A DNA stretch of 64,000 nt from a bacterium. Its GTDB lineage: Bacteria > RBG-13-61-14 > DATKZS01. The translations under genes were made by a program, and so were the position numbers. The number at the start of each line of letters is the position of its first letter. Within the stretch, counting starts at the first letter, position 1. Below are positions 2,184 through 19,200 of the stretch, piece by piece. The stretch lies in contig CAXXFL010000001.1 in assembly GCA_963674965.2 (NCBI GenBank), positions 1,440,001 to 1,504,000 of the forward strand. The letters run 5' to 3'. The notes beneath the pieces are model-generated. The model saw only the letters and a program-made list of their open reading frames with translations, was not told the origin of the DNA and ran no database searches.

Positions 2184-2888
2184 ATGAACGATTGGAACAA
2201 ATACCTGGGCAGGGTTGACTCCTTTTGCAGTCTCGCGGAAAAGGAGAGGGAGACCCTTCTCCTGGCCGCCCGGGAGAAGCGGCTCGAGAAGGGCCGGTCC
2301 CTCTTTTCCTCGCCCGAGAGCGAGGAGGTAATAATTATCCTGGATGGAGCGGCGAAAAGCTTTTACGCGGGGGGCCTGGAAAAGAAGCCGCTTTTGGACT
2401 TCCACAAGTCCGGCGAGGTCCTGGGCGAGGAGTCGGCCCTCCTATCCGGCCCGAGGGACGTCGAGGCCCTGGCCATGGGGAAGGCGCGAGCGCTGTGTTT
2501 TCCAGCCGACGAGGTCAGGGCCATGATGGACGCCCAGCCCAGGTTCGGGAGGACCATGTCCGCCCTATGCGTCTCCCGCGCCCGAGCGTGCCGCGCTCGA
2601 CTTTACTCGATGACCGCCGATCCCGTTCCCGTCCGCGTGGCCGGCGCCCTTTACGCCCTGGCCAGGAAGTTCGGCGAGCGAGGCAAAACGGGGACCATGA
2701 TCGCCCTCGCCGTCACGCACCGGGACGTGGCCGACTACGTTGGCGCCTCCCGCGAGGCCACCTCCTCCGTCATCTCGATCTTTCGAAAAAACGGACTAAT
2801 CACCGGCGGGGCAAGGCGGATAATTATCCCCGATATGAACGCCCTGAAACGGGCCTCGGAGAGAAACGCGGCGGACGACCGAGGATGA
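2184..2888 (+). CDS. Crp/Fnr-family transcriptional regulator with cNMP-binding domain
   Basis: Phosphate-binding cassette GEESALLSGPR; Crp-type HTH THRDVADYVGASREATS; start taken at ATG 2184 within ORF 2100..2888. Confidence 0.9.
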   Translation: MNDWNKYLGRVDSFCSLAEKERETLLLAAREKRLEKGRSLFSSPESEEVIIILDGAAKSFYAGGLEKKPLLDFHKSGEVLGEESALLSGPRDVEALAMGKARALCFPADEVRAMMDAQPRFGRTMSALCVSRARACRARLYSMTADPVPVRVAGALYALARKFGERGKTGTMIALAVTHRDVADYVGASREATSSVISIFRKNGLITGGARRIIIPDMNALKRASERNAADDRG

Positions 2889-2925
2889 TTTTTCCGGTTT
2901 GGAAGAAACCGGCCGAGCCAGCCCC

Positions 2926-2963
2926 AAAAAAAAGCGGGGCCGGATAAGTAGCCCCGCTTTTTT
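2926..2963. terminator. Bidirectional intrinsic terminator between convergent genes
   Basis: A-run + GCGGGGC ... GCCCCGC + T-run. Confidence 0.8.
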
Positions 2964-2975
2964 AGCTTTTTATCG

Positions 2976-5450
2976 TTACTTGGTAATAACCAGGTCGCCT
3001 CCCGCCGGTGAGGTCGAGCTGGAGATCACCTGCACGGAGGATGAACTGTTCGAGATGGCGGTGATTTTTCCCTCGCCTATCTTTTGGGTGTCCGCTCCCA
3101 GGCTGTTTCCGGCCTGGTCGGTCTGGGCCACGACCTTGAAGAGGACGACCTTCATTCCCGGCAGTATTCGGTTGTTCCTGCCCAGGGTCACCTGCATGTT
3201 GTTGCCGCTGGCCTGGGCTATGTTGCCCTGGACGATGGGGAATGAATTTTGGAGCTTGACCGCCAGTCCCTGCGTGATGAACTGGAGGTTGGACAGGGAC
3301 TTGTCCTGATGGAAGGCGTCCCTGGTAACCATGACCCGCGACGAGTCCACGTCCACCACCTGGGCCTTGAGCTCGATGCTGGTGTCGGTCTCCCGCACCA
3401 CTCCCATGATGATGGCCTCGGCCGAGCTCCTCTTGCCGGCCCGCACCGCGCTGGTGGGATCGGTCAGGCCCGTGCCCGACAGTCGAAGCTCGCGAACCAC
3501 CGAGTCGACCTGGGACCGGTCGATGTACTTGAAGCGCCGCTGGCGGATGAGGGCGGTTGAGAGGTTGTCGTAGGCCACGTCGCCGATGTCCTTGAAGTTC
3601 GGGTCCTGGAAGAAGGGAAGCATGGAAACGGAAAGCCGCTCGGCCACGCTCCTGACCCTGGGCACGACCCTGGTGACCTTGAGCGTGACCACTTCCTCCT
3701 GGCCCTTCTCGTCGATGGCCCGGATATGGATGATGTTCTGGCCCGTCCTTAAATAAACCAGCTCGTTGAAAAAGGCGTTGGTCTTGGGAGCGCGCATCAC
3801 CTGCTTCTTGCCCACGAAAACCTGCTTGACCATCGAGCCCTGGCCGACCACGCTTCCCTCGATGTAAAGCTGGTTGCTGAACACGGTCTGGGGCTTGGTC
3901 TTGAGGAAAATTTGCGGCGGCTTGTCCTCGATGCCCATGGTCTCCTGGAGGGCGTTCCAGTAAAGCTCCGTTTCCACCGCCACCTTGACCGGCTCGCTAT
4001 AATCGGGCACGGCCCTTTCCCAGACCTGCTTGTTACGGTTCCAGGGCTCGACGACCATGCCCTTCGGGGGCAGCATGATCGGACGGGCGTCGGACGTCCC
4101 GGCCGAGGCCAGGCTGTAAAAGCGGTCGATCATCCTGGTCCAGCGGATGGGGGAGGGCGCCCTTGTGCCCTTGGTCTTGGGACCGAGCACGAGCACGCCG
4201 CTGGTCTCGTTGCCGGCGCTATCCACGGCGATGAACTTGACCCGGTCGGCCTGAAGGGGAGCGGTGACCTCGAACTTTCCACCGCCCAGGTTCTTGGGGG
4301 TCACGCCGCCGAACTCGAAGGACTTCATGCCCGAGGCCTCGTCGATGGTCCCCTTGATCTGGGCCTTGCCGCCCGGCGCCTCCTGAACGTCATCGATGTA
4401 AACGCGGGGGCCCTCGCGGTCGATGGTGAACTGAACGTTCTCCCGCGACTTCTTGCCCAAGAGGTCGGTAACGGCCACGCTGAGGGTGACCTGGCCGTCG
4501 GACTTCTGGAGGGGCACGGTAAAGAGGTCCATTGGCGTTTGTTCCTCCTCGCTCATTCCCTCTTGAGTGTCCTCGGCCGCGGCCTGGATCATGACCGGGA
4601 ACACGTCGGCCCTGGTCTTCTGGGAGAAGGTATAAGGACTCTGAGTGCCGTTGGCCTCGACGATCTGTACGCCCTGGTCGTCGCTGGACTCGATGACCAG
4701 ATAGAGCGTGCCCTCCTTGACCGGCGCGCCCGTCACGTCGTCGTCGCTTTTCCACCTGATGACCTTGCTGCCCCAGCCGACTTTGAGGCTCTTCTCGAGC
4801 TGCTTCCTGTCCTTGCCGCTTACCGCCTCGAGCAGCTCGGCTATCTCGTCCTCGGTAAAGTAGTAGGGCGACGCGACCTGCTCGTATCCGGCGGGAGCGG
4901 ACGGGCTGGATTCCATGACGAAGTCCACCGACGGCTCGGATGAGATCACTTTGATGGAGGAAACCTCGGGGTCCTCCGAGTCGCCGCCCGAGGTTTTAAG
5001 CTTCCCGGCCCGGGCCTTGTCCAGGTAGTACTGGGCCTGGCTGGACTCGGTGCATTGGAGAGATAATTCGAGTTCCTCGATGGCCCCGTCCATGTCCCCG
5101 AGATTGAACAAGGCCACGCCCCGGCCGCGATGGCCGAACCACTCGACGAAGTGCATGCCGTAGCTTCTGGCCCTTCTCGTGTCGCAGCCCGGGACCTTGG
5201 CCGCCCGGTCCACGCCCTCCCGTAGCTCGATGGCCCGCTCGTAGTCGTCCTTGGCGGCGTCCCAGCACTCGCCCGCGGCGTAGGAGTCGGCACGCTCCTG
5301 GTAACTGTACCATTCCTCGCGGAAGTTGCCCTCCACCTCCCCGTAGGTCTTCCCGTCCTTTTCGCAGGGCGGTCCCTTTTTGGCCGCGGCGCTTACCGCC
5401 AAGCCAAGGGCCGAGATGAGAACTAAAAAGACCGTAGCCAACCTTTTCAT
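2976..5450 (-). CDS. Secreted/periplasmic protein: signal peptide, TPR region, Ig-like beta repeats, C-terminal CsgG-like and FlgT-C-like modules
   Basis: MKRLATVFLVLISALGLAVSAAA signal after AGGAGG RBS; TPR-like helices (GRGVALFNLGDMDGAIEELE); D..P/A.D.AGN Ig motifs; RFKYIDRSQVDSVVRELRLS...AEAIIMG CsgG-like segment. Confidence 0.75.
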   Translation of the reverse strand: MKRLATVFLVLISALGLAVSAAAKKGPPCEKDGKTYGEVEGNFREEWYSYQERADSYAAGECWDAAKDDYERAIELREGVDRAAKVPGCDTRRARSYGMHFVEWFGHRGRGVALFNLGDMDGAIEELELSLQCTESSQAQYYLDKARAGKLKTSGGDSEDPEVSSIKVISSEPSVDFVMESSPSAPAGYEQVASPYYFTEDEIAELLEAVSGKDRKQLEKSLKVGWGSKVIRWKSDDDVTGAPVKEGTLYLVIESSDDQGVQIVEANGTQSPYTFSQKTRADVFPVMIQAAAEDTQEGMSEEEQTPMDLFTVPLQKSDGQVTLSVAVTDLLGKKSRENVQFTIDREGPRVYIDDVQEAPGGKAQIKGTIDEASGMKSFEFGGVTPKNLGGGKFEVTAPLQADRVKFIAVDSAGNETSGVLVLGPKTKGTRAPSPIRWTRMIDRFYSLASAGTSDARPIMLPPKGMVVEPWNRNKQVWERAVPDYSEPVKVAVETELYWNALQETMGIEDKPPQIFLKTKPQTVFSNQLYIEGSVVGQGSMVKQVFVGKKQVMRAPKTNAFFNELVYLRTGQNIIHIRAIDEKGQEEVVTLKVTRVVPRVRSVAERLSVSMLPFFQDPNFKDIGDVAYDNLSTALIRQRRFKYIDRSQVDSVVRELRLSGTGLTDPTSAVRAGKRSSAEAIIMGVVRETDTSIELKAQVVDVDSSRVMVTRDAFHQDKSLSNLQFITQGLAVKLQNSFPIVQGNIAQASGNNMQVTLGRNNRILPGMKVVLFKVVAQTDQAGNSLGADTQKIGEGKITAISNSSSSVQVISSSTSPAGGDLVITK

Positions 5451-5612
5451 GTGGCCTCCTTTCAAAAGGCGTGAAAGTCAGGCGTTCCTTTCAACCGGGA
5501 AAGGACGCGTCTTATAGAATAATGGTTCACGGGCGGATCAAATGCAAGTATATTTCGCCCCTACACTTATTAATTGACGGGTTAACGGGCGGCGCCTTTC
5601 TTCAGCCCTCGG

Positions 5613-5654
5613 AAAAAATCGGCCGCCCTTGTCCTTCCTTGGCAAGGGCGGCCG
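5613..5654 (-). terminator. Intrinsic terminator after the cyclase-CHAT gene
   Basis: 12-bp perfect stem CGGCCGCCCTTG/CAAGGGCGGCCG followed by T6 on the minus strand. Confidence 0.75.
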
Positions 5655-5701
5655 CTCCAGCCTCCCGATATGAGATATTCCGCTTGCGGCGGTATTAGCG
5701 T

Positions 5702-8700
5702 TTATTCAGCGGCTTCCTTAACTTTCATGCCCGCGGCCATTTTCTCGGGCGCCTGAAGGACGGTCGCCTTCGAGACGTCGGGTCCCGCGCCGGTGATCTC
5801 GATCTTTCCGATCTCGATCTCGTCCGCGTCGAGAATATCGAGTTTCATGCCCTTGGCCGCGCCGGCCTTTTTACCGACGTTAATCTTAATTTCCGTTTTA
5901 TCCTTCGAGACCTCGGTGATCTTGCCCTGCACCGGGTACTCGCTCTCGATCTGGGTAATGAGACTGGACGCTATGGCCTTGGCCAGGTCGCCGGGGCTTT
6001 GCTTGCCCTGGATGACCTCGCTTATGGCGACCTTGGCGATGGTGGTCTCGGTCTCGATCAGGCGGAGGTTGACCTGGGTTTCCTCGCCGCTCCTTATATA
6101 GGAGCCAGTGGCGATCAGCCTGGCCCCGAAGAGTTTTCCCAGCCTGAGCCTGGTATCGTCGTTGGCCAGCTCGGTGGAGGAAAGGTTGAGCTCGCGAAGG
6201 ATCAGGTCGATCTTTTCGCGCTCGACCACCTCGACCCTGCCGGAGTCGCGAAGGGCCTGGGTAAGGGCTATCTTGAGGAATTCCTCCTCTCCTTCCATGA
6301 GCATGCTCTTGCCCTTGCGGTCGAAGTCGAGGAAAGTCATGGTCATGGCGCGGGAGGTCCATTCATCGTCCGCGTTCTTGGGAGGAGGCACGTTGCCCGT
6401 GCGGAAACGCTCGGCCAGGTCCTTGGTCAGGCTCTGAAGCTCGGCCTGCTTTTCCGAGTCGGCCTGCATGGCCATGGTGTTGTTTATCTGGGCCAGCATG
6501 GCCAGGGCCACGGTGCTTTCGGGGTCGGACTTGAGCGCCTTCTCGAAGACCTCCTGGGCCTGGGCCACGTTGCCCATGGCCAGGAAGCTTTGACCGGCGT
6601 TGATGGCCAACTCGGAGTTGTTGGGATCGGCCTTGAGCCCGGCCTCATAGGCCTTCATGGCCGCGTCCTTGTCCCCCCGCTGGCTGGCGTCGAGACCCAT
6701 GCGGTTATAGGTCAAAGCCAGGCCCTGCATGCCCTGCATCCTGGTCTCGGGTATCTCCGAGAGTTTTCCGTAATCGGCCAGGGCGCCCGGGTAATCTCCC
6801 TGCTGGAGCTTCATGCCCGCGGAGGCCAGAAGCTTCGAGTGGTCCTTGCCCCCGCCGAACAGCACGTAGCCGCCGATGGCCAGGAGCACGGCCAGTATGG
6901 CCACGGCTACTCCCAGGGTGGCCTTGCTGAGTCCCTGGTCCTGAGCCGGGGCCGCCATAGTCGAGGCGCCCCGGGTGACGACCGGCTGGCCGGGCTGAGT
7001 AAGAGGGGCCGCGTCGGCCTTGGGCGGGGCCGGGGCCTCCATGTCCTGAGTCGTCTCGTCGGCGGCGGCCACGTCCTCCAGGTAAGAGAAGGTCGGGTCG
7101 CCGTAGACCATATAGGAGGCCCAGACAATGGTGTCCTCCCCGTACTTGTCGATAAGAGCCAGCCTGGCCCGGCGGGCCGATTCGCCCACGGAGGCGCCCT
7201 TGATGACTTCCTTGTAGAAGGCTATGGCGAAGTCGTGACCCGGGTCGTCCAGAATGTCCCAGAAGGTGCCGATGTAGTGCTGCACTCCCGAGACCAGGAA
7301 GGCGTTGGCCACGCCGAAGATGTCCTTTTCATATCCGGCCTCGAGTTTCCACTCGTCCGTCTGGCCCGACTGGCAGGCGTTGGCGAAAACCAGACTGGGC
7401 ATGGGCTTCTTGCCGGTCATGTTCTTGACGTCGGCGGCCGAGAGCTTGCCGTCGGCGAGCAGCCAACCCGAGTTCTCGGGATTGTCCGAGTCGTAGTCGG
7501 CGTGCCCGGCGTAGTGGATGAGGTCGTAGTCCCGAATCTTGGCCTTGAGGAAATTGGTCGGGACCTCGCTCGACTTGAGGTTGACGTTGATGAACTCGTG
7601 CTCGCCGTCAAGCTCGTTCCTGATGTTCGAGCCCTCGTCCCGGCTGGCGGGAAGGTCCGAGCGCGGATCGGCCACGACCAGCATGCGAAGAGGCTTGGCG
7701 ATCTCGCGGTCGGGCACGTCGGCGATCCTCTGCCGGGTCGCGACTATCCGGCCCATGCCGAAGCGCTGGCAGAAGAACTGCTTGCCGTCGAATAAAAGCT
7801 CCCACGGCACGTGGACCAGGCGGTCGTCCATTTTGATGACCAGGTGCTCGGCCTGGGAATTGGCGATTTTCTCCTTGGCCTCCTGGGACAGGAGGTGGTC
7901 GAAGAGTATCTGGCCCACGCCCTGCATCTGCTTCAAGATTTCCTTGGTCACCTTGCCCCGCGTGTTGGCGCGATTCAACAGGTTGACCACCTCGTCGCAC
8001 TGCTCGCGCACCAGCTTCTCGTCGAGCTTGACCACGTCGTACTGGCTGACGGTCCGCTCCTCTCCCCGCTGGCGCTCGAACACGCTGATCTTGAGCTTGT
8101 TGCCGTCGCGGGAGGCGTCGAGCTCGATCACCCTGCCCCTGACGACCTTGCCCCTTTTATCGACGGTGCGGCGGGTGGCGGCCTTCTTGAACTCGCCCTC
8201 CGCCACCATCTGGGTATCGCTCCATACGACGCGGTAAATCTTGACCGGCTCGGCCTTGCCCTTGCACTCGACGTCGCCGAAGAAGCGCACCAGTATCTCG
8301 TCGTCTCCCCTTACCTCTTTATAGAGGCTGTCGGAGATGAGTATCTGCTCCGCGTCGCATTTGGACTCGACCCGGGCGGCAACGTTGACCGCGTCGCCGA
8401 ACACGTCCTTTTCCTCGACAACGGCCGGGCCGTGGTTAAGGCCGATGCGAACGAGGATACGCCGGTGCTTCTGGTCCTGGGCCTTGTTGTATTCCTCCAG
8501 GACCTTCTGCATGGCGATGGCGGCCTTGACGCCCTGGGCCGGGTCGTCGAACACGGCCATGATGGCGTCGCCGATGGTTTTGATCACCCTGCCGCCGAAC
8601 TGCTTGACCTTGGGAAAGAGCATGGCGTTATGGCGCTCGACCATGGCCCGTCCCTCGACGTCTCCATAGGTCTCGAAATATGAGGTCGACCCTTTGATGT

Positions 8701-8881
8701 CGGTGAACATGACGGTGATGTTCTTCTGGAACTTCTCCTTGAGCATCTGGTCGAGCGCGGCCTGTTCCTGCTCGAGCCGGAGGCGCTCCTGGAGGATGGA
8801 ATCGACCGAGGCGGGCATTTTATCGTCCTTCTTTGGGGCCTCGCCCTGATTTTTCTCTTTATCGTGCTCATTGTCCGCCAT
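5702..8881 (-). CDS. Class III adenylate/guanylate cyclase - CHAT (caspase-like) protease - TM - TPR - CsgG/FlgT-like fusion protein
   Basis: Cyclase motifs VMFTDIKGST, KTIGDAIMA, DVFGDAVNVAARVE; CHAT motifs VPWELL, LIHYAGH, LVFANACQS, WASYMVYGDP; single hydrophobic helix GVAVAILAVLLAIGGYVLFG; TPRs; RVEVVEREKIDLILRELNLS CsgG-like segment. Confidence 0.88.
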   Translation of the reverse strand: MADNEHDKEKNQGEAPKKDDKMPASVDSILQERLRLEQEQAALDQMLKEKFQKNITVMFTDIKGSTSYFETYGDVEGRAMVERHNAMLFPKVKQFGGRVIKTIGDAIMAVFDDPAQGVKAAIAMQKVLEEYNKAQDQKHRRILVRIGLNHGPAVVEEKDVFGDAVNVAARVESKCDAEQILISDSLYKEVRGDDEILVRFFGDVECKGKAEPVKIYRVVWSDTQMVAEGEFKKAATRRTVDKRGKVVRGRVIELDASRDGNKLKISVFERQRGEERTVSQYDVVKLDEKLVREQCDEVVNLLNRANTRGKVTKEILKQMQGVGQILFDHLLSQEAKEKIANSQAEHLVIKMDDRLVHVPWELLFDGKQFFCQRFGMGRIVATRQRIADVPDREIAKPLRMLVVADPRSDLPASRDEGSNIRNELDGEHEFINVNLKSSEVPTNFLKAKIRDYDLIHYAGHADYDSDNPENSGWLLADGKLSAADVKNMTGKKPMPSLVFANACQSGQTDEWKLEAGYEKDIFGVANAFLVSGVQHYIGTFWDILDDPGHDFAIAFYKEVIKGASVGESARRARLALIDKYGEDTIVWASYMVYGDPTFSYLEDVAAADETTQDMEAPAPPKADAAPLTQPGQPVVTRGASTMAAPAQDQGLSKATLGVAVAILAVLLAIGGYVLFGGGKDHSKLLASAGMKLQQGDYPGALADYGKLSEIPETRMQGMQGLALTYNRMGLDASQRGDKDAAMKAYEAGLKADPNNSELAINAGQSFLAMGNVAQAQEVFEKALKSDPESTVALAMLAQINNTMAMQADSEKQAELQSLTKDLAERFRTGNVPPPKNADDEWTSRAMTMTFLDFDRKGKSMLMEGEEEFLKIALTQALRDSGRVEVVEREKIDLILRELNLSSTELANDDTRLRLGKLFGARLIATGSYIRSGEETQVNLRLIETETTIAKVAISEVIQGKQSPGDLAKAIASSLITQIESEYPVQGKITEVSKDKTEIKINVGKKAGAAKGMKLDILDADEIEIGKIEITGAGPDVSKATVLQAPEKMAAGMKVKEAAE

Positions 8882-8882
8882 T

Positions 8883-9584
8883 TTACTCTCCTTTCATCTC
8901 CAGGGTGATTTTACCAAGCGGCTCTCCCACTCGAGTAATTTCAACCCGGTATTGTCCAAACTTAAGGTTCTCGAAAACGGCGGTCCCGCCGTCGAGCATC
9001 GAGCTTTCCAGCTCGAGGTCATCGTCGAAAAGACTGACCCTGACGCCCCTGGCGGGAAGGCCCGACTCGGCGTCCGTCATTTTTACCGTGATTTCCCCTC
9101 GGTCCGGCTTGGTTTTTTCCACGTCCACGTCGGTCCTGAACGGGGGCATCAGCTTGGAAAAGGTAACCAGGGTCTCGCTCACCACGTGGCCTTCTCCCCG
9201 CGTGGCGTCGGTGGCGGCAACGGCCTGGCCGCGGACGTCGTCGCTCATTTTAAGGACCTTGGCTACTCCTTTGGCGAATTGAATGACCAATTCCATGGTT
9301 TGGTTCCTCGAGGGGTCAAGGGCCTTGGCCCTGGCAAGTGCTCTTTGCGGTATAATTATCCGATCTTCCTTGTCTTTTTCCGAAAGGACCGTCTTGATTA
9401 CCCGCAAGGTGAAAAGACACTCAGGGCATCTGGCGGCGTGCATAAGAAGCTCGTCGGCGAGAGATTCCTCGAGTTTTCCCTCAGCCAGGGCGGCCAGGGT
9501 TTCATCGTCCGGACATTTTCCCCTGGGCCGGCTGGTGATGGACCTTTTGGCCAATCTCTTTAATATGTTGTCTTTTAGCTTCAT
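8883..9584 (-). CDS. Soluble zf-HC2 (ZAS) anti-sigma factor with C-terminal beta-sandwich domain
   Basis: CP...LAAL.EG.L...HAARCPEC zinc motif; no TM helix; directly downstream of ECF sigma; start taken at ATG 9584. Confidence 0.8.
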   Translation of the reverse strand: MKLKDNILKRLAKRSITSRPRGKCPDDETLAALAEGKLEESLADELLMHAARCPECLFTLRVIKTVLSEKDKEDRIIIPQRALARAKALDPSRNQTMELVIQFAKGVAKVLKMSDDVRGQAVAATDATRGEGHVVSETLVTFSKLMPPFRTDVDVEKTKPDRGEITVKMTDAESGLPARGVRVSLFDDDLELESSMLDGGTAVFENLKFGQYRVEITRVGEPLGKITLEMKGE

Positions 9585-9638
9585 CTCAAAAAAATCCGTC
9601 GTTGAAAGGACCCTGCGCACCTTCAATCTCAAAGGAAA

Positions 9639-9665
9639 TAGACGGGCGAGAAATTATTTTCTTCC
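9639..9665 (-). promoter_or_regulatory. Putative ECF-type promoter overlapping the sigma gene 3' end, driving anti-sigma and cyclase-CHAT genes
   Basis: Minus strand GGAAGA-N15-CGTCTA; CGTC -10 is typical of ECF promoters. Confidence 0.45.
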
Positions 9666-10319
9666 CCGCTTCTTTACCGATTCTTTCAGTTTATTTTTAA
9701 TCCTATTTACGCGGCTATAAACGGTTTTCACCGAAATGCCAAGTATTTGAGAGACTTCCTCGGGACCAAGTTCCCGTCCGTAATATAACTCCATGAAATA
9801 TCTGTCGTTTTCGCATAATTCCTCAATGGCTTCCGCCATGGCCGCGTTTTTTTCGTTTTCCTCAAAATCTTCGTCCGGCATGGTCACGGGGTTCCTATGG
9901 GATACCTCGAGCGCCATTTCCTCGCTGGTAATGTCCACAAGTTTTATTCTTCGGGCCTTTTGCCTCAAATAATCGATAATGAACCTTACCGTAATGGTCC
10001 GAATCCAGGTCGCGGCGGTCGCGCCCTCGTACCCCCTGTAAAGTCTAAGCTTTTTACAGTCGTCCTTGATAAAGTGGATGATGACGTCGTTAAACAGGTC
10101 TTCAAGTTCTTCAGGGGCGGGCTTGTAATTCTTAAGGGAACAGGTGCGGTGGATGGAATAATAGATAAGCTTGCCGTATTGGTCCAGGAACCTGTCCCAT
10201 GCCCCGGGCTCCGCGGCACAGCAGGCCCGGAGCAACTCCTTGCCGGAATCGAGATCGTCGAAACTATTATCGCCGTTAATTTCGGACAAAATTATATCCG
10301 CGCGTGGCCGTCTCCGCAT
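9654..10319 (-). CDS. ECF (group 4) sigma-70 factor
   Basis: Region 2 (AWDRFLDQYGKLIY, EDLFNDV, TWIRTITVRFIIDYLR) and region 4 (EEVSQILGISVKTVYSRVNRIK); exact start uncertain. Confidence 0.9.
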   Translation of the reverse strand: MRRRPRADIILSEINGDNSFDDLDSGKELLRACCAAEPGAWDRFLDQYGKLIYYSIHRTCSLKNYKPAPEELEDLFNDVIIHFIKDDCKKLRLYRGYEGATAATWIRTITVRFIIDYLRQKARRIKLVDITSEEMALEVSHRNPVTMPDEDFEENEKNAAMAEAIEELCENDRYFMELYYGRELGPEEVSQILGISVKTVYSRVNRIKNKLKESVKKRGRK

Positions 10320-10446
10320 TCCAGTCGGAAAAACGACGCGCCGGGCGCCCTCCTTACATTGGCCAACCGCTTATGAAATTACCAGATGCGGATAATAAGG
10401 TCAAGGTATGGGCGGCGCTCCAGCGGGGGAGCGCCCGGGCGGCCGC

Positions 10447-12012
10447 TTATAATTTATCGTACCTGAAGAAAAGCCTCTTGATGGGAGCCAGTATCCATCT
10501 GAAAACGATTATAGGTATGCCGGTTTTCTTGAACCTGAAATAGGCGTCCATGGCCGAAAGGCCCGAGAACATCCAGTCCGAGAAGCGGTAGGCCTCCTCG
10601 ATGAGGTCCAGGCTAACGGGCAAAAGGTCGATAACGTTCTGCCAGGGATCGTATATGGACTTGTCGCCCTCCCAGATCACCTCGGGCTTGCCAAAGGCCT
10701 CCCAGGCCAGGCCCAGGAAACGGCCCACCCGCGGGTCGTCCGCGTCAAGCCCCATCTTCTTGGCCCCCACCCAGTCCACGGCCATGAGGTTCTCGCCCGC
10801 GATAATCGTCTTGGTATGGTTCGGATGGGTGTCCGTTATAACGCCGAGCTGGCCGTCAGCGCTCCAGAAGGCGTCGATAATCCCGAAGTGGACCTTGAAG
10901 TGCTTCATGCTCTCGATGGTGGGCCAGTCGTATTCGCGCTTGGTATGGTACTCGAGGAGCTTGTTCTGACAGGGCAGTGTCCCGTAAATGTTTTTAAGGG
11001 TCAGGGTGTACTGACAGAAGACGTGGGTCTTGTTCTTGGCGAAGGACACCCGGAAGTCGGCGTCGCGCCAGGTTGGCCCCACCCAGTGCATGCCCAGCCT
11101 TCCTCCGTAATCGTAGGGGACCATCTCCTCGGTAAGGTCCACTATCCGGTAGTTCTCGCCGGTGTATCCGATATATTCGGCGACTTTTTTAACCTCGCGG
11201 TTCTCATAATAGTTGCCATAGGTGCTCTGGGCCTCGACCAGGGCAATATTGGTGAATCCCTCATCATAAATAATTTTAATGAGCTTCTCGACCAACTGGG
11301 GGTCCGTAAAGGAGCTGTGGTCCTTTTTGCTGTGCATGAACATGAAGTTGGGCTTGACCGCCACCAAAAAGTCCTCTTTACTTTTTCCAGAGTCCTTATG
11401 GCATTTTTTAAGGACTTCCATGAATTTCGCGTCCTCGAGGGTCTTTTCAAGGAGCGCGATCTTTTCCTCGCCCTTGTTCACCACCACCCGGGTGGGACCG
11501 GTATGCTCGGTAATGTCCAGGTGGTCGCGACAGTAGACCGTCTGCCTTTTGAACCAGGCCCGGATGGACCGAAGATACAGGATAAGGGTGATCCAGAAAA
11601 TGGTGCCGTCCACCAGAAAGATGGCAAGATAGGCGAAATGCCGGGCGGAGAAAAGAAACAGGCCCATGCCCGAGACGGCGCTCGCCGCCTTGGCCACCAG
11701 AACGTAAACGGTAAGGGGCTTGTACTTGACCACGTTGTAATAGACCATGCAACTGAGGGCGGAGATGGTGGTCATCATCGAGAAAGTGAGGGAAAGCCAG
11801 AACCTCTCGCTTGACATATCGACGGGCGGCAGCTTGAGATGCAGCCCTTCCGAGATATCGTTCATCAGGGTCAGCGTGAAGTCGGGCGCGAAAAGGAAGA
11901 CGAAACCGACGAACAGGTAGGTCAGTCCCGCCACTCCCATGAAGTATCTTAGCTGCGTCTCCTGGCGATGGGGCGCCCTCTCGTCCTCGCCGCATCCTTT
12001 GTGCTCGTTCAT
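10447..12012 (-). CDS. DUF362-family (Fe-S-associated) protein with N-terminal 4-TM domain
   Basis: VKPNF, TDPQLV, KNKTH..TLTLKN.YG, IIDA, NLMAVDWV motifs; ATG 12012 with AGGAGG RBS overlapping upstream stop (ATGA). Confidence 0.7.
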   Translation of the reverse strand: MNEHKGCGEDERAPHRQETQLRYFMGVAGLTYLFVGFVFLFAPDFTLTLMNDISEGLHLKLPPVDMSSERFWLSLTFSMMTTISALSCMVYYNVVKYKPLTVYVLVAKAASAVSGMGLFLFSARHFAYLAIFLVDGTIFWITLILYLRSIRAWFKRQTVYCRDHLDITEHTGPTRVVVNKGEEKIALLEKTLEDAKFMEVLKKCHKDSGKSKEDFLVAVKPNFMFMHSKKDHSSFTDPQLVEKLIKIIYDEGFTNIALVEAQSTYGNYYENREVKKVAEYIGYTGENYRIVDLTEEMVPYDYGGRLGMHWVGPTWRDADFRVSFAKNKTHVFCQYTLTLKNIYGTLPCQNKLLEYHTKREYDWPTIESMKHFKVHFGIIDAFWSADGQLGVITDTHPNHTKTIIAGENLMAVDWVGAKKMGLDADDPRVGRFLGLAWEAFGKPEVIWEGDKSIYDPWQNVIDLLPVSLDLIEEAYRFSDWMFSGLSAMDAYFRFKKTGIPIIVFRWILAPIKRLFFRYDKL

Positions 12013-12800
12013 GATTCCTCCTTTTCCTTGGGCGCGTCCTGGCCGAGGGACTCGGCCGCGAGGAAGGCGGCCAGCGCGAATTGGGTCAGTATCTCGAGGG
12101 GCCAGCATCCGATAACCAGAAACAGGGGCGGATAGCTTGGGCTATGGCTGAACGTCCATATCCCGGCGGCGATTGCCCCCAGGTACTCGCAAAGGTTGGC
12201 GGCGATAAGCGTCGCCATGACGGTCCCGGCGAAGACGGCGAAATTCATCCGGATGGAAGTATAGGCGGCGACGGCGAAGAGGATGACGTAAAAGGCCACG
12301 AAGTAATAGCCCACGCCGTCCCAGTACTCGCCGAGGGACAGCCAGATGAACCAGAAGAAGAAGGCCACGCAAAGCGGGTTGATCCATCTCGGCGCGGGCC
12401 TCAGCCATTGGGGGAAAGAGGGCTCGAGCAGGCTGACGGTCTTGATCAAGACCCGGGACGAGACAACGTAGACCGTGACCGCCGCCGCCACCCAGGCCAA
12501 TATGCCGAAAGTGTAGAAATGGCCGGGCCCGTTGTAGGTCCAGCATTTCGAGGCCACGCCTATGGACTCCTTCACGTACTCGATCAGGAAGACGCCAAGC
12601 AAAAGGGCCAGCATCCTTTTGGTGGACGAGAAAAGGGCCATCCAGACCACGCAGGCGAAGCCGAAAAGGAGCAGGACCAGGAAAGGCCCTCTCAGCATGG
12701 GCGCGTAGCCTTCATGGACGGCCGCGAAAAGGGTGACGGCTATGAAAAGCCCGGCTAGAAAAAGGTTCTTGGGCCTGTCGTTGACGATATCCGACTTCAT
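12009..12800 (-). CDS. Polytopic membrane protein with internal duplication (E..G....WT(Y/F) motif twice)
   Basis: About 8 hydrophobic helices; EYVKESIGVASKCWTY and CEYLGAIAAGIWTF; translationally coupled to the DUF362 gene. Confidence 0.65.
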   Translation of the reverse strand: MKSDIVNDRPKNLFLAGLFIAVTLFAAVHEGYAPMLRGPFLVLLLFGFACVVWMALFSSTKRMLALLLGVFLIEYVKESIGVASKCWTYNGPGHFYTFGILAWVAAAVTVYVVSSRVLIKTVSLLEPSFPQWLRPAPRWINPLCVAFFFWFIWLSLGEYWDGVGYYFVAFYVILFAVAAYTSIRMNFAVFAGTVMATLIAANLCEYLGAIAAGIWTFSHSPSYPPLFLVIGCWPLEILTQFALAAFLAAESLGQDAPKEKEES

Positions 12801-13249: not shown

Positions 13250-16200
13250 ATGGATTTTATAAAAAAGAACCGTTCAAAAATGGCCGTCCCTTTAGGGACT
13301 TCGTTACTTATTTGCTTAACGGTTGTCACCTGTGCGCTTCCACAAGGGGCCGATATTAAGTGGACCCACCCTCCGTTTCTTAATTTCGGTTACGGCATAA
13401 AGATTCATGACGTCGTAGACCCAAACATGAACGATAAGAATGAACGGATAGTTTTCTATTTTGGAGAGGGCCAGGACACTTCATCTTTTTATCCTGGCGA
13501 CGATTTGGCAATTGAAAAATGCCTTGCCCATGAAATAAACGGGGTTTGGCAGTGCGACGGACAGTCCGAAAGTCTTGACCTCAACGAGTATCTCCCGACC
13601 GATTTCTGCCAGTTCGGTCCCGGCCAGCCGGGGGCTGAACTTTGCTTCATTTGCAATGATTATTCCACTCCATGCTCTTCCAGTGACAATAACTGCTGCC
13701 AGTTTATAGGCTTTCAATATGACACGGAGGAGTACATTCTATCCGAGTCGTCGAGAGTAACCGGATCGTTTACATACGCATATGCGTGGGACTGGACGGA
13801 AAAAGACGGACTGGATGATAAGATATACGACCGGCTGACGATATGGGTGGACAACCTGGAGGGAGACGCCTCAAGCAACTACCTGTATTTCGTAACCATA
13901 AACGGTCAATATACGCTTGAGTTCGTATCTCACGCGCATGACGACTCCTGGGATGAGATACCATATTTGAAGTCCCGCCGCCCGGCCTTTAACTCCGGTC
14001 TCGGGATCGGCGAACCTTTTCCACCACATGGTGAGTTGAAAATGGAGTTCAGCGAGCCGATGAGGATAGTTGCCCCTCATGCCTGGTATGATCCCGCTCC
14101 TCCACCCAGCGAAGATTCCTTCATCGGCCTGGACGAGTACGGCCAGGAAATCAGCGACTTCACCAACTCCACCGTTTTCAGGGGCTGGATGGACGCGGGG
14201 CTTCCTCCTAACACGGACGTCAATATTATCCTGTTCGGCGAGGGAAATGAATGGTGGAGCATGCTCAATTACCATCCAGACGACCTCATCGGCCAAAGCG
14301 TCCGTCCGTCCGAGATTGGACATGATCAATACTTGGTCTGGCCGCCCCTCCAGGACGCCGATGGAACGCGAATGGCCATGGGGGACTATATCGAAGCCGT
14401 CGAAAACCCCGCCGGGTCCGGAGTGCTGGAGGAATCATACACGATGGACGAGTTTTCCTCCCATGACCCGTACGACGTGGTGGAACTGCTCTTTAAAACG
14501 TCTCCCGTCCGGGCCGACGTCCGTTACGACAAAGACAATATCGACAATGAATTGCTGGCGCCCTACATGCCTTTGTCCGGATGCGTCGAAATGTCAGCCC
14601 AGGTTGACGAGGCCGAGGTGGACGGACTTGATCTTGAGGTCCTCGACCCGTCCGCTGATTACGCTGACTCCGGACTGGGCCTGGGCTCGTGCGGACCCAT
14701 TTCGTCCGGACAGGCCGCGTGCGCCTTCGATTTTTCCGGCGTGCCCGTATCCGGGAAAACCTACTCCATAAGGTTCAATTCCTACTACGGCGCGGCGCTT
14801 AAAGGTCTCGATCAGATCAACGCTCAATTCGATCTAACCGGTGACCATGACGCCGACGGCCTTTCCGACGCCCAGGAGATTCAAAACCACTCCACCGACC
14901 CTTGTATAGCCGACACGGACGGCGACGGCTTGTTCGACGGAGACGAGGTTTACACCTATATGACTGACCCGACGGACCCGGACACCGATGGAGACGGCAT
15001 GCCCGACGGTTGGGAGCACGTCAACGGTCTTGACCCGCTCGACGACGGCGATTGGGACGACGATCAGGATTCCGACGGCCTGACCAACCTTAATGAGTTT
15101 AATAACGGGACGGACCCATCGAATCAGGACACGGACGGCGACGGCCTATTCGACGACATGGAGATTTTCTACGGATATCCGTATGATCCTTTGGAACCCC
15201 AAGAAAATTCAAATATTATCGTTGACGCGCGGTCCAGCGTGTTCGGTTCTTTTGACGACCCATACAATCACAGGACCATTCCAAACATGGACACGGGACT
15301 TTACGAATTGTTCCTGCTGAATCAGGCCAAGGACACTTTCGACTACGTGGGAAATGGAATGCTGCTATTCGAGATTGACGCGAATGGCTCATTGACACTG
15401 GTAAGACATTTAAATTCCGACGTCTCCAGCGGAGATTGGGACGGCGTTGATACCGAGGACCAGTGGTTCGAGGACACGATAACTTCATTCGCCCTTAACG
15501 GAGACGAGCTTGTCATTGGATCGTTCAGAGGCGGCCTGTATTATTACGACCTTGTCAACGAAAAGATAAACAAACATTTTACGATGGCCAATACCAACGT
15601 TGCGGCCACGATTACCCAAATCGCCGGGAACGACATATATCTTGTTCCAGACGACTGCGATATAGTAAATCCGCTTTGTCCATCACCTTCGACAACCCCA
15701 TGCTTGTCAAGTGATTTGACGAGTGGCTGGGATTGGCAAAACGCAATAAACCGGCAGATTATGATAAACGGATACAGTTTTATAGTGACTTCTATAAGCG
15801 TCGCCGGCTCCGAAATTGTAGTTCAGTTACTTCAGCCCATGGAATACTTCGCGCGACCAGACCCGATTCAAGGGGTGGGGCCATCCTACAATAAAGCCGT
15901 TTTCCAAACGGGGCTTATCGAGAATAACGTTTTTCAAATCCAAGCTGACTCGGATGATATATGGATCAATTCGGGCAGGAGTCAAATGAAAAGCCCGTTT
16001 CTAGGAGCGGACGAAACTGGGGGTATGAGTAAAATCAAAAAATCCGGTATCCAGGATGGAAATTCCTCGATAAGGCCTCAAGCTTCCGAGGCTGGATATA
16101 ACATGTACCCGGCGGCCTCATTTCATATTGACTCGAACGAAACGAAATGGATCGTGTGGGACAATTCCGACTCCGCTACCGAGACCGCCATTGGAAAGCT

Positions 16201-19200
16201 TACACTAATCGGAGATTACAATGAAAAAACCTATACTTACGCCGATCCTTCCACAATCTATGGCGCGGAACCTATAAGCGTCATTGAAGACGCGCAATTA
16301 GGAGAGAAAAAATATTTGTTATTCGGTACAAAATATAATGCGGGGAGTATTGAGAAAGGAGTCTTTGTTTATGATATCGACTCGGATATCTTCATCGCTA
16401 AATTAAGACATAACTTGGACGACTACTATCATGTTATCGATGGAGATCAAAGCGGCGATCCAAACAGCATCTTGGGCAATAATGTATTCGCGATAAAGGC
16501 TCAAGTAGTTAAGGTAGGGCCCTCTAATAATGAGAAAGACCACGTTTTCGCCTGGATTGCTACGGACCATGGAGTAAGCCTGGTCGATCTGCCGCAGACC
16601 TCTACTGATGAGCTAGAAAATTGCGGTACCAACTGCGCCTTTGAACATTTTGACGCGTCTAGCAAGGTTACCAACGGATGGGACTATTCTGGATACCCAA
16701 TGATGCACGACGACGTTTTACAATATTCTTGCCTGCCGGATAACATTGTATATGACGTTCACGTTGAAAGCGCAATTCCTGCGAATGATATAAAGGACGT
16801 GACGTGGACCGTATGGTTTGCAACCGCAAGCGGACTTGCACGGTTCAAAGGCACAAGCGAGGAGTTTCAATATGTCGATAGCCAGTGCGAGCAATTACAT
16901 TGGGATTATTACAATAATAGTACGGATTCATTATTATTCCCCGACCAAAAAAATGATAAAGTTAGCTCCATGCTATTTTTCAATCATGGTGACAAGGATT
17001 ATCTTGCCGTAGGGTCGGGGGATCCTTTTTATCATAATACCGGAAATACTTCTAAAGAGATAGAATTACTTAATGAAGCTAATAAAACCAGCCCAAACAA
17101 GCCCTTCAGAAAAGTAAGAGCAAATATCTTTATCAATGAGGATTGGACACAAAACGTTTGGGAAAGAGGATACAATTCGATATATAACTTTTATACGAAA
17201 GATTTTCATGACGCCACAAGCGTTACTGGAGATGAATGCGGAATAGAAGAACCGCAATGCATAGAAGACGAGATTCACAGGTTGAAATTTGGCAATCTCG
17301 ACTTGATCATGGACAAGTTGGTACAGGAAAGAGACGTGATACCCATTATAGGTTTCCATAGTTTTCCGATGATTATTTGGAATGAAATGGGAAAAGATTG
17401 CGGCCACTTTTTTGCTAGTGACCCTGAACATTCCATGGGTTGCTGGGGAAGCGTAGATTGGAGAGTCTATCAGAACCTCGTTTACGCTCTACTTTATCAC
17501 TACCGGGAAAGATATGGGTCCGATAAAGTTAATAGTTGGTACCTCGAGATTTATAACGAAAACGGCCCATTTGATCTTAATGACGATTACTATCAGGCCA
17601 CTCTTGAGGCCATTGAGGCTTTTGAGGCCAAATACGGAAAGACCATCAATTTTGGAGTTAATAAAAGCGGATTTGTAGACGATTTTTCATTCTCGGAAGG
17701 AGATGATGGTTGGATGTCTCGTTTGGATATTATTACGTGCCATCCATACGACCACGCCTCTCTATATAAAGCCAGCCCAATCCATTTGCAGACTCATTTA
17801 GATGGCGTAAGAGCATCAAGACTCTGGATTCATAAATTATTTCCACATGCCACATGGGCATATACTGAGGACGGCCCGTGGTTCTCAACGGACTCCCGGG
17901 CTAATTACGATATATTTCTTCGCACGTATAACAATCATCGATTCGGAATCTACAACTGGGACGGCGTAAGAGATATCCATGATAGCTCCATGCTTGATAT
18001 ACTGAGGCCTCCGGACTTCTCGAATCATGAAAACTTCAATTTCAGTAAAGCGGGTTCTTTTGTAAATCTATGGAATTATACAAATTATATTGAAGATAAA
18101 GCCGTCGTGAGAAACGTTAATTTCACGGCCCAGGAAGCTTTGTCCCATTTGGGAGACCTGAGAATCTTCGCTTCGAAATACGGAAACGGGTCAGAAATGG
18201 CGCCATTCGCCACTCTCGATTCCCATAACATGGGCAGCATTGCCGTTGCCGCGCAAGATTACTCTTTCTGGGGATTATATCCTGATGATTTACTAGACCA
18301 AGCGCTGGTAAACCGAAGCGTAAGAACACATAATATAACCATCAATGGATTGGACCCCAACGCCGAATACAACGTCCTCGAGTACAAACTCGACGAAGAG
18401 CATGGAAGCGAAAGCGACGATGATTACTATCTTGGCGCTTATTATCAATATATGGAACAAGGCTGCGCCATCAAGCCACAGAACTGCACGGGACCGGTCC
18501 TGGAAAAAATAATCGAAGACTCCAAATTGAAAAGATTGAAGGGCGCCAGTGAAAGAGCGTTTTCAGAGATGGTGTCGGGGTCCTCGCATATCGATGGCTC
18601 TATCGATCTGGTCGAGGGCGGAGCCTACGTAGTAGAGTTACAGGCCGCGCCGGTCCTTCATCACGATCCAGCCCAGATTCCGGCGGAACATTCCATGATA
18701 TCCGACCCGGCGGGAAACATCTTCGTGACTTACAAGGCGGGGGACAGCCTGTTCCTCAAGTCGTGGGACGTTAACACTAATAAATGGTCCGTCGAGGGCG
18801 TTTTGGACTTTGACGACTCAAGGTCCGTGTCTGACGTGCAATACGTCGTGGACGCTCAATCATATCTCGCCTCCTTCCAGGACGGCGCGCCCGGAGGGCC
18901 ATACGAGGGAAAGAAAATAATCCATCTCGCCGATCATTACATCCACCCGGAGTCGATCGTCCTTACCCAGACTGGGATTGATTATACCCCTCGAAACGCC
19001 TGTTATCAGGGAATGTACAACCTCAAGTACAATTACCATGACAAGACCCTCGAGCTTTGTCCAGGGTCCGAGATGAGCGACGGGCAGGTAACGGTTAATT
19101 ACGACCGCTCGGTAGTCCTGCTGGGAGCCGAGAGTTCGGCCAATCAACCGGGATTATACGCGCATGACGGCGTCAGCCTTTTTGGCCACGTGGTGGAACA

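Follow-up and report, generated by a model that had tools for sequence, protein, structure and literature searches.

Introduction

Regulated proteolysis of anti-sigma factors is a main route by which bacteria convey envelope signals, and the known routes employ periplasmic and intramembrane proteases that act on membrane anti-sigmas. CHAT proteases acting on sigma inhibitors are, to our knowledge, known only from type III-E systems of clustered regularly interspaced short palindromic repeats (CRISPR) and, as a proposal, from DdvA. The present study is focused on a bacterial DNA stretch of 64,000 nucleotides (contig CAXXFL010000001.1, positions 1,440,001–1,504,000; hereafter the window, to which all coordinates are relative) and on a cassette of four genes within it, encoding a sigma factor of the extracytoplasmic function (ECF) type, a zinc-finger anti-sigma, a transmembrane receptor with cyclase and CHAT domains, and an exported partner protein. 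Protease-gated anti-sigma release is well known, and a report on Craspase cites RseA and RsiW as instances of it (PMC10028731). In Craspase, Csx29 is reported to cut Csx30, the N-terminal domain of which binds CASP-sigma; Csx30 associates with Csx29 whether target RNA is present or not, and is cut within a small flexible loop of its C-terminal domain (PMC10028731). DdvA of Myxococcus xanthus, an anti-sigma located in the membrane, has a TPR-CHAT region in the periplasm, and its CHCC zinc finger holds the ECF sigma DdvS; the authors refer to DdvA as the only characterised anti-sigma in which a domain of the TPR-CHAT kind is found, and propose that this region gates the release of DdvS by proteolysis (PMC11506125).

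The four genes considered here form a real cassette that is widely conserved across phyla. The cassette is a member of neither the Craspase nor the DdvA type of system, and its layout is Craspase-like. We regard it as somewhat probable that the receptor gates cleavage of a docked anti-sigma by its CHAT domain, with the cyclase as an additional output, in a Craspase-like manner without CRISPR.

Conservation of the Cassette

The genes of the cassette and their predicted parts are as follows.

9654–10319, minus strand: ECF (group IV) sigma factor of 221 amino acids (TIGR02937, Sigma70_r2, Sigma70 r4_2)
8883–9584, minus strand: soluble zinc-finger (ZAS-type) anti-sigma-like protein of 233 amino acids, from the ATG at 9584; the reading frame is open from a TTG at 9632
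9417–9515, minus strand: codons of the zinc ligands C-x24-H-x3-C-x2-C (anti-sigma residues 24–56), read from the sequence
9183–9212, minus strand: disordered anti-sigma loop (residues 125–134) with Arg129 (codon 9198–9200), from model confidence and conservation
8892–9170, minus strand: C-terminal immunoglobulin (Ig)-like beta-sandwich of the anti-sigma (residues 139–231), the predicted CHAT docking domain, from the model and the co-fold
5702–8881, minus strand: single-pass receptor of 1059 amino acids, with cytoplasmic cyclase and CHAT domains, one transmembrane segment, and a periplasmic TPR and FlgT-like module
8249–8731, minus strand: class III nucleotidyl cyclase domain of the receptor (residues 51–211; PF00211), with Lys/Asp as substrate-specifying residues
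7097–7918, minus strand: CHAT caspase-like protease domain of the receptor (residues 322–595; dyad His460/Cys503; PF12770)
6845–6922, minus strand: single transmembrane segment of the receptor (approximately residues 654–679), its only stretch above the Kyte-Doolittle threshold
5705–6823, minus strand: periplasmic TPR and FlgT/TolB-N/LpoB-like module of the receptor (residues 687–1059), from the model and Foldseek
2976–5465, minus strand: exported partner of 829 amino acids, with signal peptide, TPR, Ig-like domain, and C-terminal FlgT-like module

A preliminary description of the locus had listed these four genes together with a convergent Crp gene, and all five were confirmed by open reading frames (ORFs) and by Pfam and NCBIfam scans. 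Relatives of the receptor were collected by a pattern scan with one genome per species, which yielded 218 genome stretches; the 80 best of these made up the set of loci analysed, drawn from Desulfobacterota, Nitrospirota, and other phyla. The anti-sigma family is found in 55 of the 80 loci, in 54 of which it lies within −127 to +63 nucleotides of the start of the receptor gene and shares its strand; a sigma homolog is found in 46 loci, and 40 of these homologs lie 600–900 nucleotides upstream of the receptor start. Because contig ends cut many of the loci, counts were also made by available flank: among 61 loci with at least 1.6 kb upstream, 46 carry the anti-sigma and 42 carry both anti-sigma and sigma, and of 32 loci with at least 4.5 kb on both sides, 30 encode the partner, 26 the anti-sigma, 23 the sigma, and 22 a FadL-like barrel. 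The usual gene order is either sigma, anti-sigma, receptor, barrel, and partner or barrel, partner, sigma, anti-sigma, and receptor. Only these five families are conserved around the receptor, and neither a cas gene nor an effector family occurs among the conserved neighbours, which upholds the CRISPR-independence supposed initially.

In addition, 13 genomes of the window's own phylum were searched for homologs of the receptor, anti-sigma, partner, and Crp. A full-length anti-sigma occurs in 10 of them, in one copy each and always adjoining a full-length receptor; one further genome has a receptor cut by a contig end, one has only a 124-residue fragment matching the periplasmic part of the receptor, and one lacks the receptor and also the anti-sigma and partner. 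The partner is present in the same 11 of the 13 genomes as a long receptor match. The initially expected co-conservation of all five genes, as seen in the 80 loci and the 13 genomes, holds for the sigma, anti-sigma, receptor, and partner but not for the Crp gene, which is considered below. More than 1200 proteins at E ≤ 0.001 among 8000 scored candidates belong to the receptor family, and 332 cluster representatives at E ≤ 1e-30 to the anti-sigma family.

Structure and Domains of the Receptor

The cyclase domain of the receptor matches Guanylate_cyc (PF00211) at 4.4e-22 (79 bits; cut-off 21.9), and the closest solved cyclase is Ma1120 (3.6e-37). Class III cyclases carry two metal-binding Asp residues, a transition-state Asn and Arg, and a pair of residues that specifies the substrate. 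All six are present in the window receptor (D61, D105, N166, R170, and the pair K101/D159). In an alignment of 68 full-length receptors of at least 890 amino acids, which also served for a quick tree and from which 13 shorter or cut rows were excluded, D61 and D105 are conserved in 66 of 68 rows, N166 in 67, and R170 in all 68; the Lys and Asp of the substrate-specifying pair are kept in 42 and 41 of 68, respectively. Glu/Ala or Asp/His replaces the pair in whole clades (L030, L032, L037, L040, L041, L056, L059, L074, and others), which suggests that different receptor clades make different cyclic nucleotides.

The CHAT domain matches PF12770 at 2.6e-37 (129.3 bits; cut-off 24), and both residues of the dyad expected of CHAT proteases, H460 and C503, are invariant in the 68 receptors. 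The domain is predicted to be a caspase-like His-Cys protease, and the conserved catalytic residues of both enzyme domains are in line with the cyclase and CHAT assignments of the preliminary description. A sequence search with the CHAT region against solved structures gave no match at E ≤ 0.01, and the best 60 matches listed for the full-length receptor profile are all TPR or cyclase chains.

The transmembrane segment was assigned as a Kyte-Doolittle 19-residue mean above 1.6. Beyond it, three to four TPR repeats (residues 690–810) and a CsgG/LpoB-like match (872–929) were detected. The AlphaFold model of residues 687–1059 has a predicted local distance difference test (pLDDT) value of 91.2, and a Foldseek search with this model placed FlgT on top (8z5n, 1.8e-10; 3w1e, 4.2e-10), followed by TolB and LpoB. 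The FlgT matches extend over 280–283 columns and cover both FlgT domains, with TM-scores of 0.27–0.29 that are low because the receptor model has several domains. The external TPR-CsgG/FlgT-like domains of the preliminary description are borne out by these matches. A VIA search with the same model was saturated by TPR results and has no bearing on the FlgT-like part. Apart from a few short or partial proteins, the best receptor homologs listed share the cyclase-CHAT-(TPR)-CsgG-like architecture, and their database names are only "CHAT domain-containing protein" or names of domains.

Sigma and Anti-Sigma

The sigma factor matches TIGR02937 at 2.1e-26 (92.5 bits; cut-off 42.9), and Sigma70_r2 and r4_2 were both detected, which places it in the ECF (group IV) family; no named ECF subfamily model in the NCBIfam scan exceeded its cut-off. 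The anti-sigma probably starts at the ATG at 9584, since the first residues of the frame are missing in most homologs, and its stop codon is 1 nucleotide from the receptor ATG. The zinc ligands C24, H49, C53, and C56 are each at least 90% conserved in an alignment of 46 homologs. A profile of the family matches, among solved structures, RsiW (4.5e-5), 3hug_B (9.1e-5), ChrR (0.003), DdvA (0.018), and RsrA (0.026); Csx30 is not among the matches. The entry 3hug_B was deposited under the title "probable conserved membrane protein" and is presumably the Mycobacterium tuberculosis anti-sigma RslA. The HxxxCxxC motif with an upstream Cys and these profile matches assign the protein to the class I zinc-binding (ZAS) fold. 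The protein contains no hydrophobic segment and is therefore taken to be soluble, and a transmembrane segment is missing in 54 of 56 family members. The initial designation as a soluble zf-HC2 anti-sigma stands as regards the profile, the ligands, and solubility, but the single sequence stays below the Pfam cut-off for zf-HC2 (E = 0.051; 14.1 against 22.2 bits).

Among the best 150 of the 332 family representatives, all but one, an unrelated repeat protein, have 201–283 amino acids, and nearly all align end to end in a single stretch. Family members are named only "hypothetical" or "putative zinc-finger" in the databases; no fused form longer than 448 amino acids was found, although this is weak evidence. 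The AlphaFold model of the anti-sigma (mean pLDDT 85.9) consists of a helical N-terminal domain, which would hold the ECF sigma, and a C-terminal beta-sandwich, for which a fold search returned only generic Ig-like sandwiches. The sole stretch with pLDDT below 50 is the loop of residues 125–134, in which R129 is invariant in all 46 sequences, and this loop is a candidate scissile loop. The G+C content is 0.49–0.57 across the sigma and anti-sigma genes (9000–10500) and 0.60–0.65 across the receptor gene.

Predicted Docking of the Anti-Sigma on the CHAT Domain

The preliminary description had called for a structure prediction of the CHAT domain with the anti-sigma, and direct contact between them is predicted. 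When receptor residues 225–640 were co-folded with the anti-sigma, the interaction prediction score from aligned errors (ipSAE) was 0.77 (0.76, 0.77, and 0.78 in the individual runs), against 0.00 for the best of three controls. In the calibration of the tool, 58 of 80 solved complexes and 2 of 110 mismatched pairs attained the mark applied; these figures are only approximate for the present case, since the alignments were our own. At least 83% of contacts agree between runs, with a partner pLDDT of at least 69. The predicted interface comprises receptor residues 408–444, including the strand 433–437, and anti-sigma residues 179–220, among which are the best-conserved residues of the C-terminal domain (R182, E191, S194, and F204). 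Neither interface has a solved homolog by sequence, and therefore recall of a known complex is unlikely. Docking of the C-terminal Ig-like domain on CHAT is supported by this model.

Exported Partner and FadL-Like Barrel

The N-terminus of the partner resembles a signal peptide, domain matches were obtained to TPR, CsgG/LpoB, and, below cut-off, Big_13, and its C-terminal module is homologous to the periplasmic module of the receptor (E = 2e-5; 22% identity). Many partner homologs have a lipoprotein-type signal: a strict lipobox pattern identifies 16 of 44, and visual inspection adds others. These lipoprotein-like homologs include those of L017, L020, L025, L026, L051, L052, and L062; the window partner and its Nitrospirota counterparts have the appearance of ordinary secreted proteins. 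The fifth family conserved around the receptor is a FadL/TodX-type outer-membrane barrel (PF03349, 4.7e-19). The barrel is missing from the window locus and from the loci of the nearest relatives; three FadL-like homologs are encoded elsewhere in the source genome, none with a cassette homolog beside it. No flagellar genes were found among the conserved neighbours of the receptor in the 80 loci.

Comparison With Known Systems

The cassette shares with Craspase (Cas7-11, Csx29 TPR-CHAT, Csx30, and CASP-sigma) the combination of a CHAT protein with a soluble two-domain inhibitor of an ECF-type sigma. The order within the inhibitor is also alike, i.e., an N-terminal sigma-binding domain, a flexible loop, which contains the invariant Arg in the present family, and a C-terminal domain predicted here to dock on CHAT. 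By contrast, the cassette has no association with CRISPR or Cas7-11 and no RNA trigger, its protease belongs to a transmembrane receptor that also comprises a cyclase and a sensor in the periplasm, and its inhibitor is a zinc-finger class I anti-sigma without detectable similarity to Csx30; the sigma scores 38.4 bits against the cut-off of 100 of NF041236, the type III-E sigma model. With DdvA/DdvS, the cassette has in common the ECF sigma and the CHCC zinc-finger anti-sigma, the family profile of which weakly matches the N-terminal domain of DdvA, as given above. However, in DdvA, the CHAT domain is fused to the anti-sigma, is periplasmic, and has an incomplete active site, and release is proposed to require RseP, whereas the anti-sigma in the window is soluble and the CHAT domain is cytoplasmic, on a separate receptor, and fused to a cyclase. 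The DdvA-type arrangement of a ZAS domain, transmembrane helix, and periplasmic TPR-CHAT region in one polypeptide is not found in the window anti-sigma.

The proposed course from an envelope cue through anti-sigma proteolysis to the release of an ECF sigma resembles that of RseA/DegS/RseP and RsiW, and the anti-sigma domain is homologous to that of RsiW. RseA and RsiW are membrane anti-sigmas cut by periplasmic and intramembrane proteases, whereas in the cassette the anti-sigma is soluble and a separate receptor would carry the signal. The periplasmic module of the receptor, which the partner shares, has its best fold match in FlgT, a flagellar H-ring protein of Vibrio; unlike FlgT, the module is fused here to a signalling receptor.

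No publication describing a cyclase-CHAT receptor together with an anti-sigma emerged from a literature search, consistent with the initial statement that no example of the architecture has been characterised. The main text of the ECF reclassification contains no mention of "CHAT," "cyclase," or "caspase," although its supplementary group descriptions may list the gene context of this sigma group (PMC7826278).

Proposed Mechanism

We propose an envelope-spanning cassette, in which the periplasmic TPR and FlgT-like module of the receptor would pair with the exported protein bearing the same module, joined in most relatives by the FadL-type outer-membrane barrel. The sigma would be held by the N-terminal domain of the anti-sigma, and the C-terminal Ig-like domain would rest on an edge of the CHAT domain, an arrangement that would keep the sigma waiting at the receptor. 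CHAT would be activated by a periplasmic cue, probably via altered receptor association, and would then cut the docked anti-sigma in the flexible loop with the invariant Arg; degradation of the sigma-binding fragment would free the sigma. The same activation would bring the cyclase domains together and raise the cyclic nucleotide level. Cleavage of the anti-sigma, the cut site, the cyclase activity, and the external cue are the parts of this scheme that we infer. The cascade in its entirety, i.e., a CRISPR-independent course from a periplasmic or outer-membrane cue through CHAT cleavage of the pre-docked anti-sigma to the freed sigma, with the cyclase in parallel, is a serious possibility that we place a little short of an even chance.

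If the scheme is true, the cassette would constitute a type of transmembrane signalling with two outputs that has not been described in bacteria, in which the logic of CHAT and sigma inhibitor is used by an ordinary transmembrane receptor and coupled to second-messenger synthesis. The uncharacterised cassette suggests that envelope signals can reach gene expression by a new route. Its importance also lies in its spread, given above as genome stretches, receptor homologs, and anti-sigma clusters, and in its compactness, as the system is testable and consists of four proteins, with a single docking interface predicted and a single candidate site of cleavage.

The scheme is favoured by the co-conservation of the four genes, the uniformity of the anti-sigma family, the conserved enzyme residues, the co-fold score relative to the controls, the invariant Arg in the only low-confidence stretch of the anti-sigma model, and the Craspase precedent. 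Several points weigh against it. Adjacent anti-sigmas are absent from 15 of the 64 full-length receptors with enough upstream DNA, and these 15 keep the dyad, and therefore CHAT must have a role independent of the anti-sigma. Among five genomes of such receptors, four have no anti-sigma anywhere; in the fifth (L053; G017:C45:8787-9011), a C-terminal remnant of the anti-sigma with an in-frame TAA lies just upstream of the receptor, and it seems that this cassette has lost its anti-sigma recently. Receptors without anti-sigma are scattered over the quick tree, where the starred branches force at least seven changes; greater age or constancy is accordingly attributed to the core of receptor and partner (with or without the barrel), and the sigma/anti-sigma pair is, judging from this distribution, an output that was lost several times. 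Furthermore, the confident contacts of the docking model lie outside the active site, and the Arg loop is not placed at His460/Cys503; the model supports docking but not cleavage. Receptor interface residues show only a small trend towards stronger conservation where the anti-sigma is present (R421 in 42 of 49 loci with it against 9 of 15 lacking it; D425, 44 of 49 against 9 of 15), and these rows are not independent. By virtue of its zinc site, the anti-sigma could itself act as a redox sensor, and the conserved cassette contains no gene for a cyclic-nucleotide reader. No shared ECF-type promoter was found upstream of the sigma genes by k-mer and bipartite counts (at most 7 of 43 regions, against shuffle maxima of 4–6). 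A consensus scan of the window for promoters likewise gave no useful match.

Alternative Explanations

Docking on CHAT need not lead to cleavage: it may be an anchor or a regulated binding, in which the signal alters anti-sigma binding such that the sigma is released or captured, and CHAT would cut the receptor itself or another substrate. The position of the predicted interface away from His460/Cys503 and the dyad conserved in all 15 receptors without adjacent anti-sigma agree with such a tether, but the invariant Arg falls in the one disordered loop of the anti-sigma, and Craspase combines constitutive docking with loop cleavage (PMC10028731); we consider the tether unlikely, without being far-fetched. 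The anti-sigma may also sense thiol or oxidative stress by itself, like RsrA, with CHAT and cyclase downstream, not upstream, of a sigma whose only part would be to express the genes of receptor and partner. The conserved C/H/C/C ligands and the profile matches to RsrA and ChrR are in line with a redox switch. This explanation is nevertheless quite improbable in view of the conserved additional C-terminal domain predicted to dock on CHAT and of the receptor adjoining all 10 full-length anti-sigma copies in the phylum. CHAT and cyclase domains are, moreover, common in defence systems, weak PADLOC domain matches were obtained (PycC, 9.5e-10; BovA, 5e-7), and DdvA/DdvS is reported to control a defence island (PMC11506125), all of which would fit a sigma-controlled anti-phage or conflict module. 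However, the PADLOC matches concern single generic domains without a system-level match, the conserved partners are periplasmic or outer-membrane proteins, cas and effector families are lacking among the conserved neighbours, and the cassette occurs in 10–11 of the 13 phylum genomes in one copy each, unlike a patchy island; a defence role is very improbable.

The remaining explanation concerns the adjacent gene, which was initially assigned an intact cyclic nucleoside monophosphate (cNMP) pocket and the role of reading the receptor's product.

2184–2888, plus strand: Crp/Fnr-family regulator (cNMP_binding, 5.2e-10; HTH_Crp_2, 3.1e-16), convergent to the four minus-strand genes

Its adjacency in the window, its two domains, and the presence of the M. 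tuberculosis Crp/Fnr-family entries 3d0s, 3mzh, and 3i54 among its nearest solved relatives speak for a dedicated second output through this protein. However, no NCBIfam CRP/FNR model reaches its cut-off (27.7 against 266 bits for the CRP model). In cyclic adenosine monophosphate-binding CRPs, a Ser or Thr after the pocket Arg contacts the cyclic phosphate. The Crp neighbour keeps the Gly-Glu and the Arg of the pocket, but an Asp follows the Arg in place of the Thr of its two best solved relatives (PRDV against PRT[AS]), so the phosphate-binding cassette is not canonical and an intact pocket is not confirmed. A Crp homolog was found in none of the 80 receptor loci. Within the phylum, homologs at E ≤ 1e-20 occur in 11 of the 13 genomes including the source, and in all 10 others on a contig other than that of the receptor; one genome keeps the Crp homolog and lacks the receptor, anti-sigma, and partner, and two have the cassette or receptor and no Crp homolog at this threshold. 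At least five other cyclase-domain genes are present in the source genome. For these reasons, i.e., the loci, the contigs, the pocket Asp, and the other cyclase genes, the Crp protein was rejected as a cassette member and dropped from the system, and we regard its role as dedicated reader as highly unlikely. Cleavage of the docked anti-sigma by CHAT is accordingly considered with the cyclase, but not with Crp.

Neighbouring Genes and Additional Observations

Four other neighbours were considered as cassette parts and rejected, each being found in 0 of the 80 loci: the DUF362 protein (10447–12108), a 263-amino acid ORF (12009–12800), a formyltransferase (1206–1985), and an M50/CBS protease (21–1196). 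The cassette is flanked by the last of these, an M50-family peptidase with two CBS domains on the minus strand, and by the DUF362 protein, which has 553 amino acids and is also on the minus strand.

In a wastewater metatranscriptome library, five short contigs fall within 5662–8726, in the receptor gene only, with 1–11 differences per 266–633 nucleotides; the run was found using the receptor gene and DNA carry-over is possible, and the zero coverage of the sigma and anti-sigma genes is uninformative. Elsewhere in the same genome (G000:C5:775301-781223; L006, L011), a 690-amino acid ORF with a cyclase domain lies approximately 2 kb from a 401-amino acid ORF with a match to the receptor in its CsgG/LpoB-like part; the two may represent a second, simpler pairing. 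On the plus strand of the window, positions 13250–20050 hold an ORF of 2266 amino acids with bacterial TSP3 repeats, a weak GH39-like stretch, and a local G+C content of 0.46.

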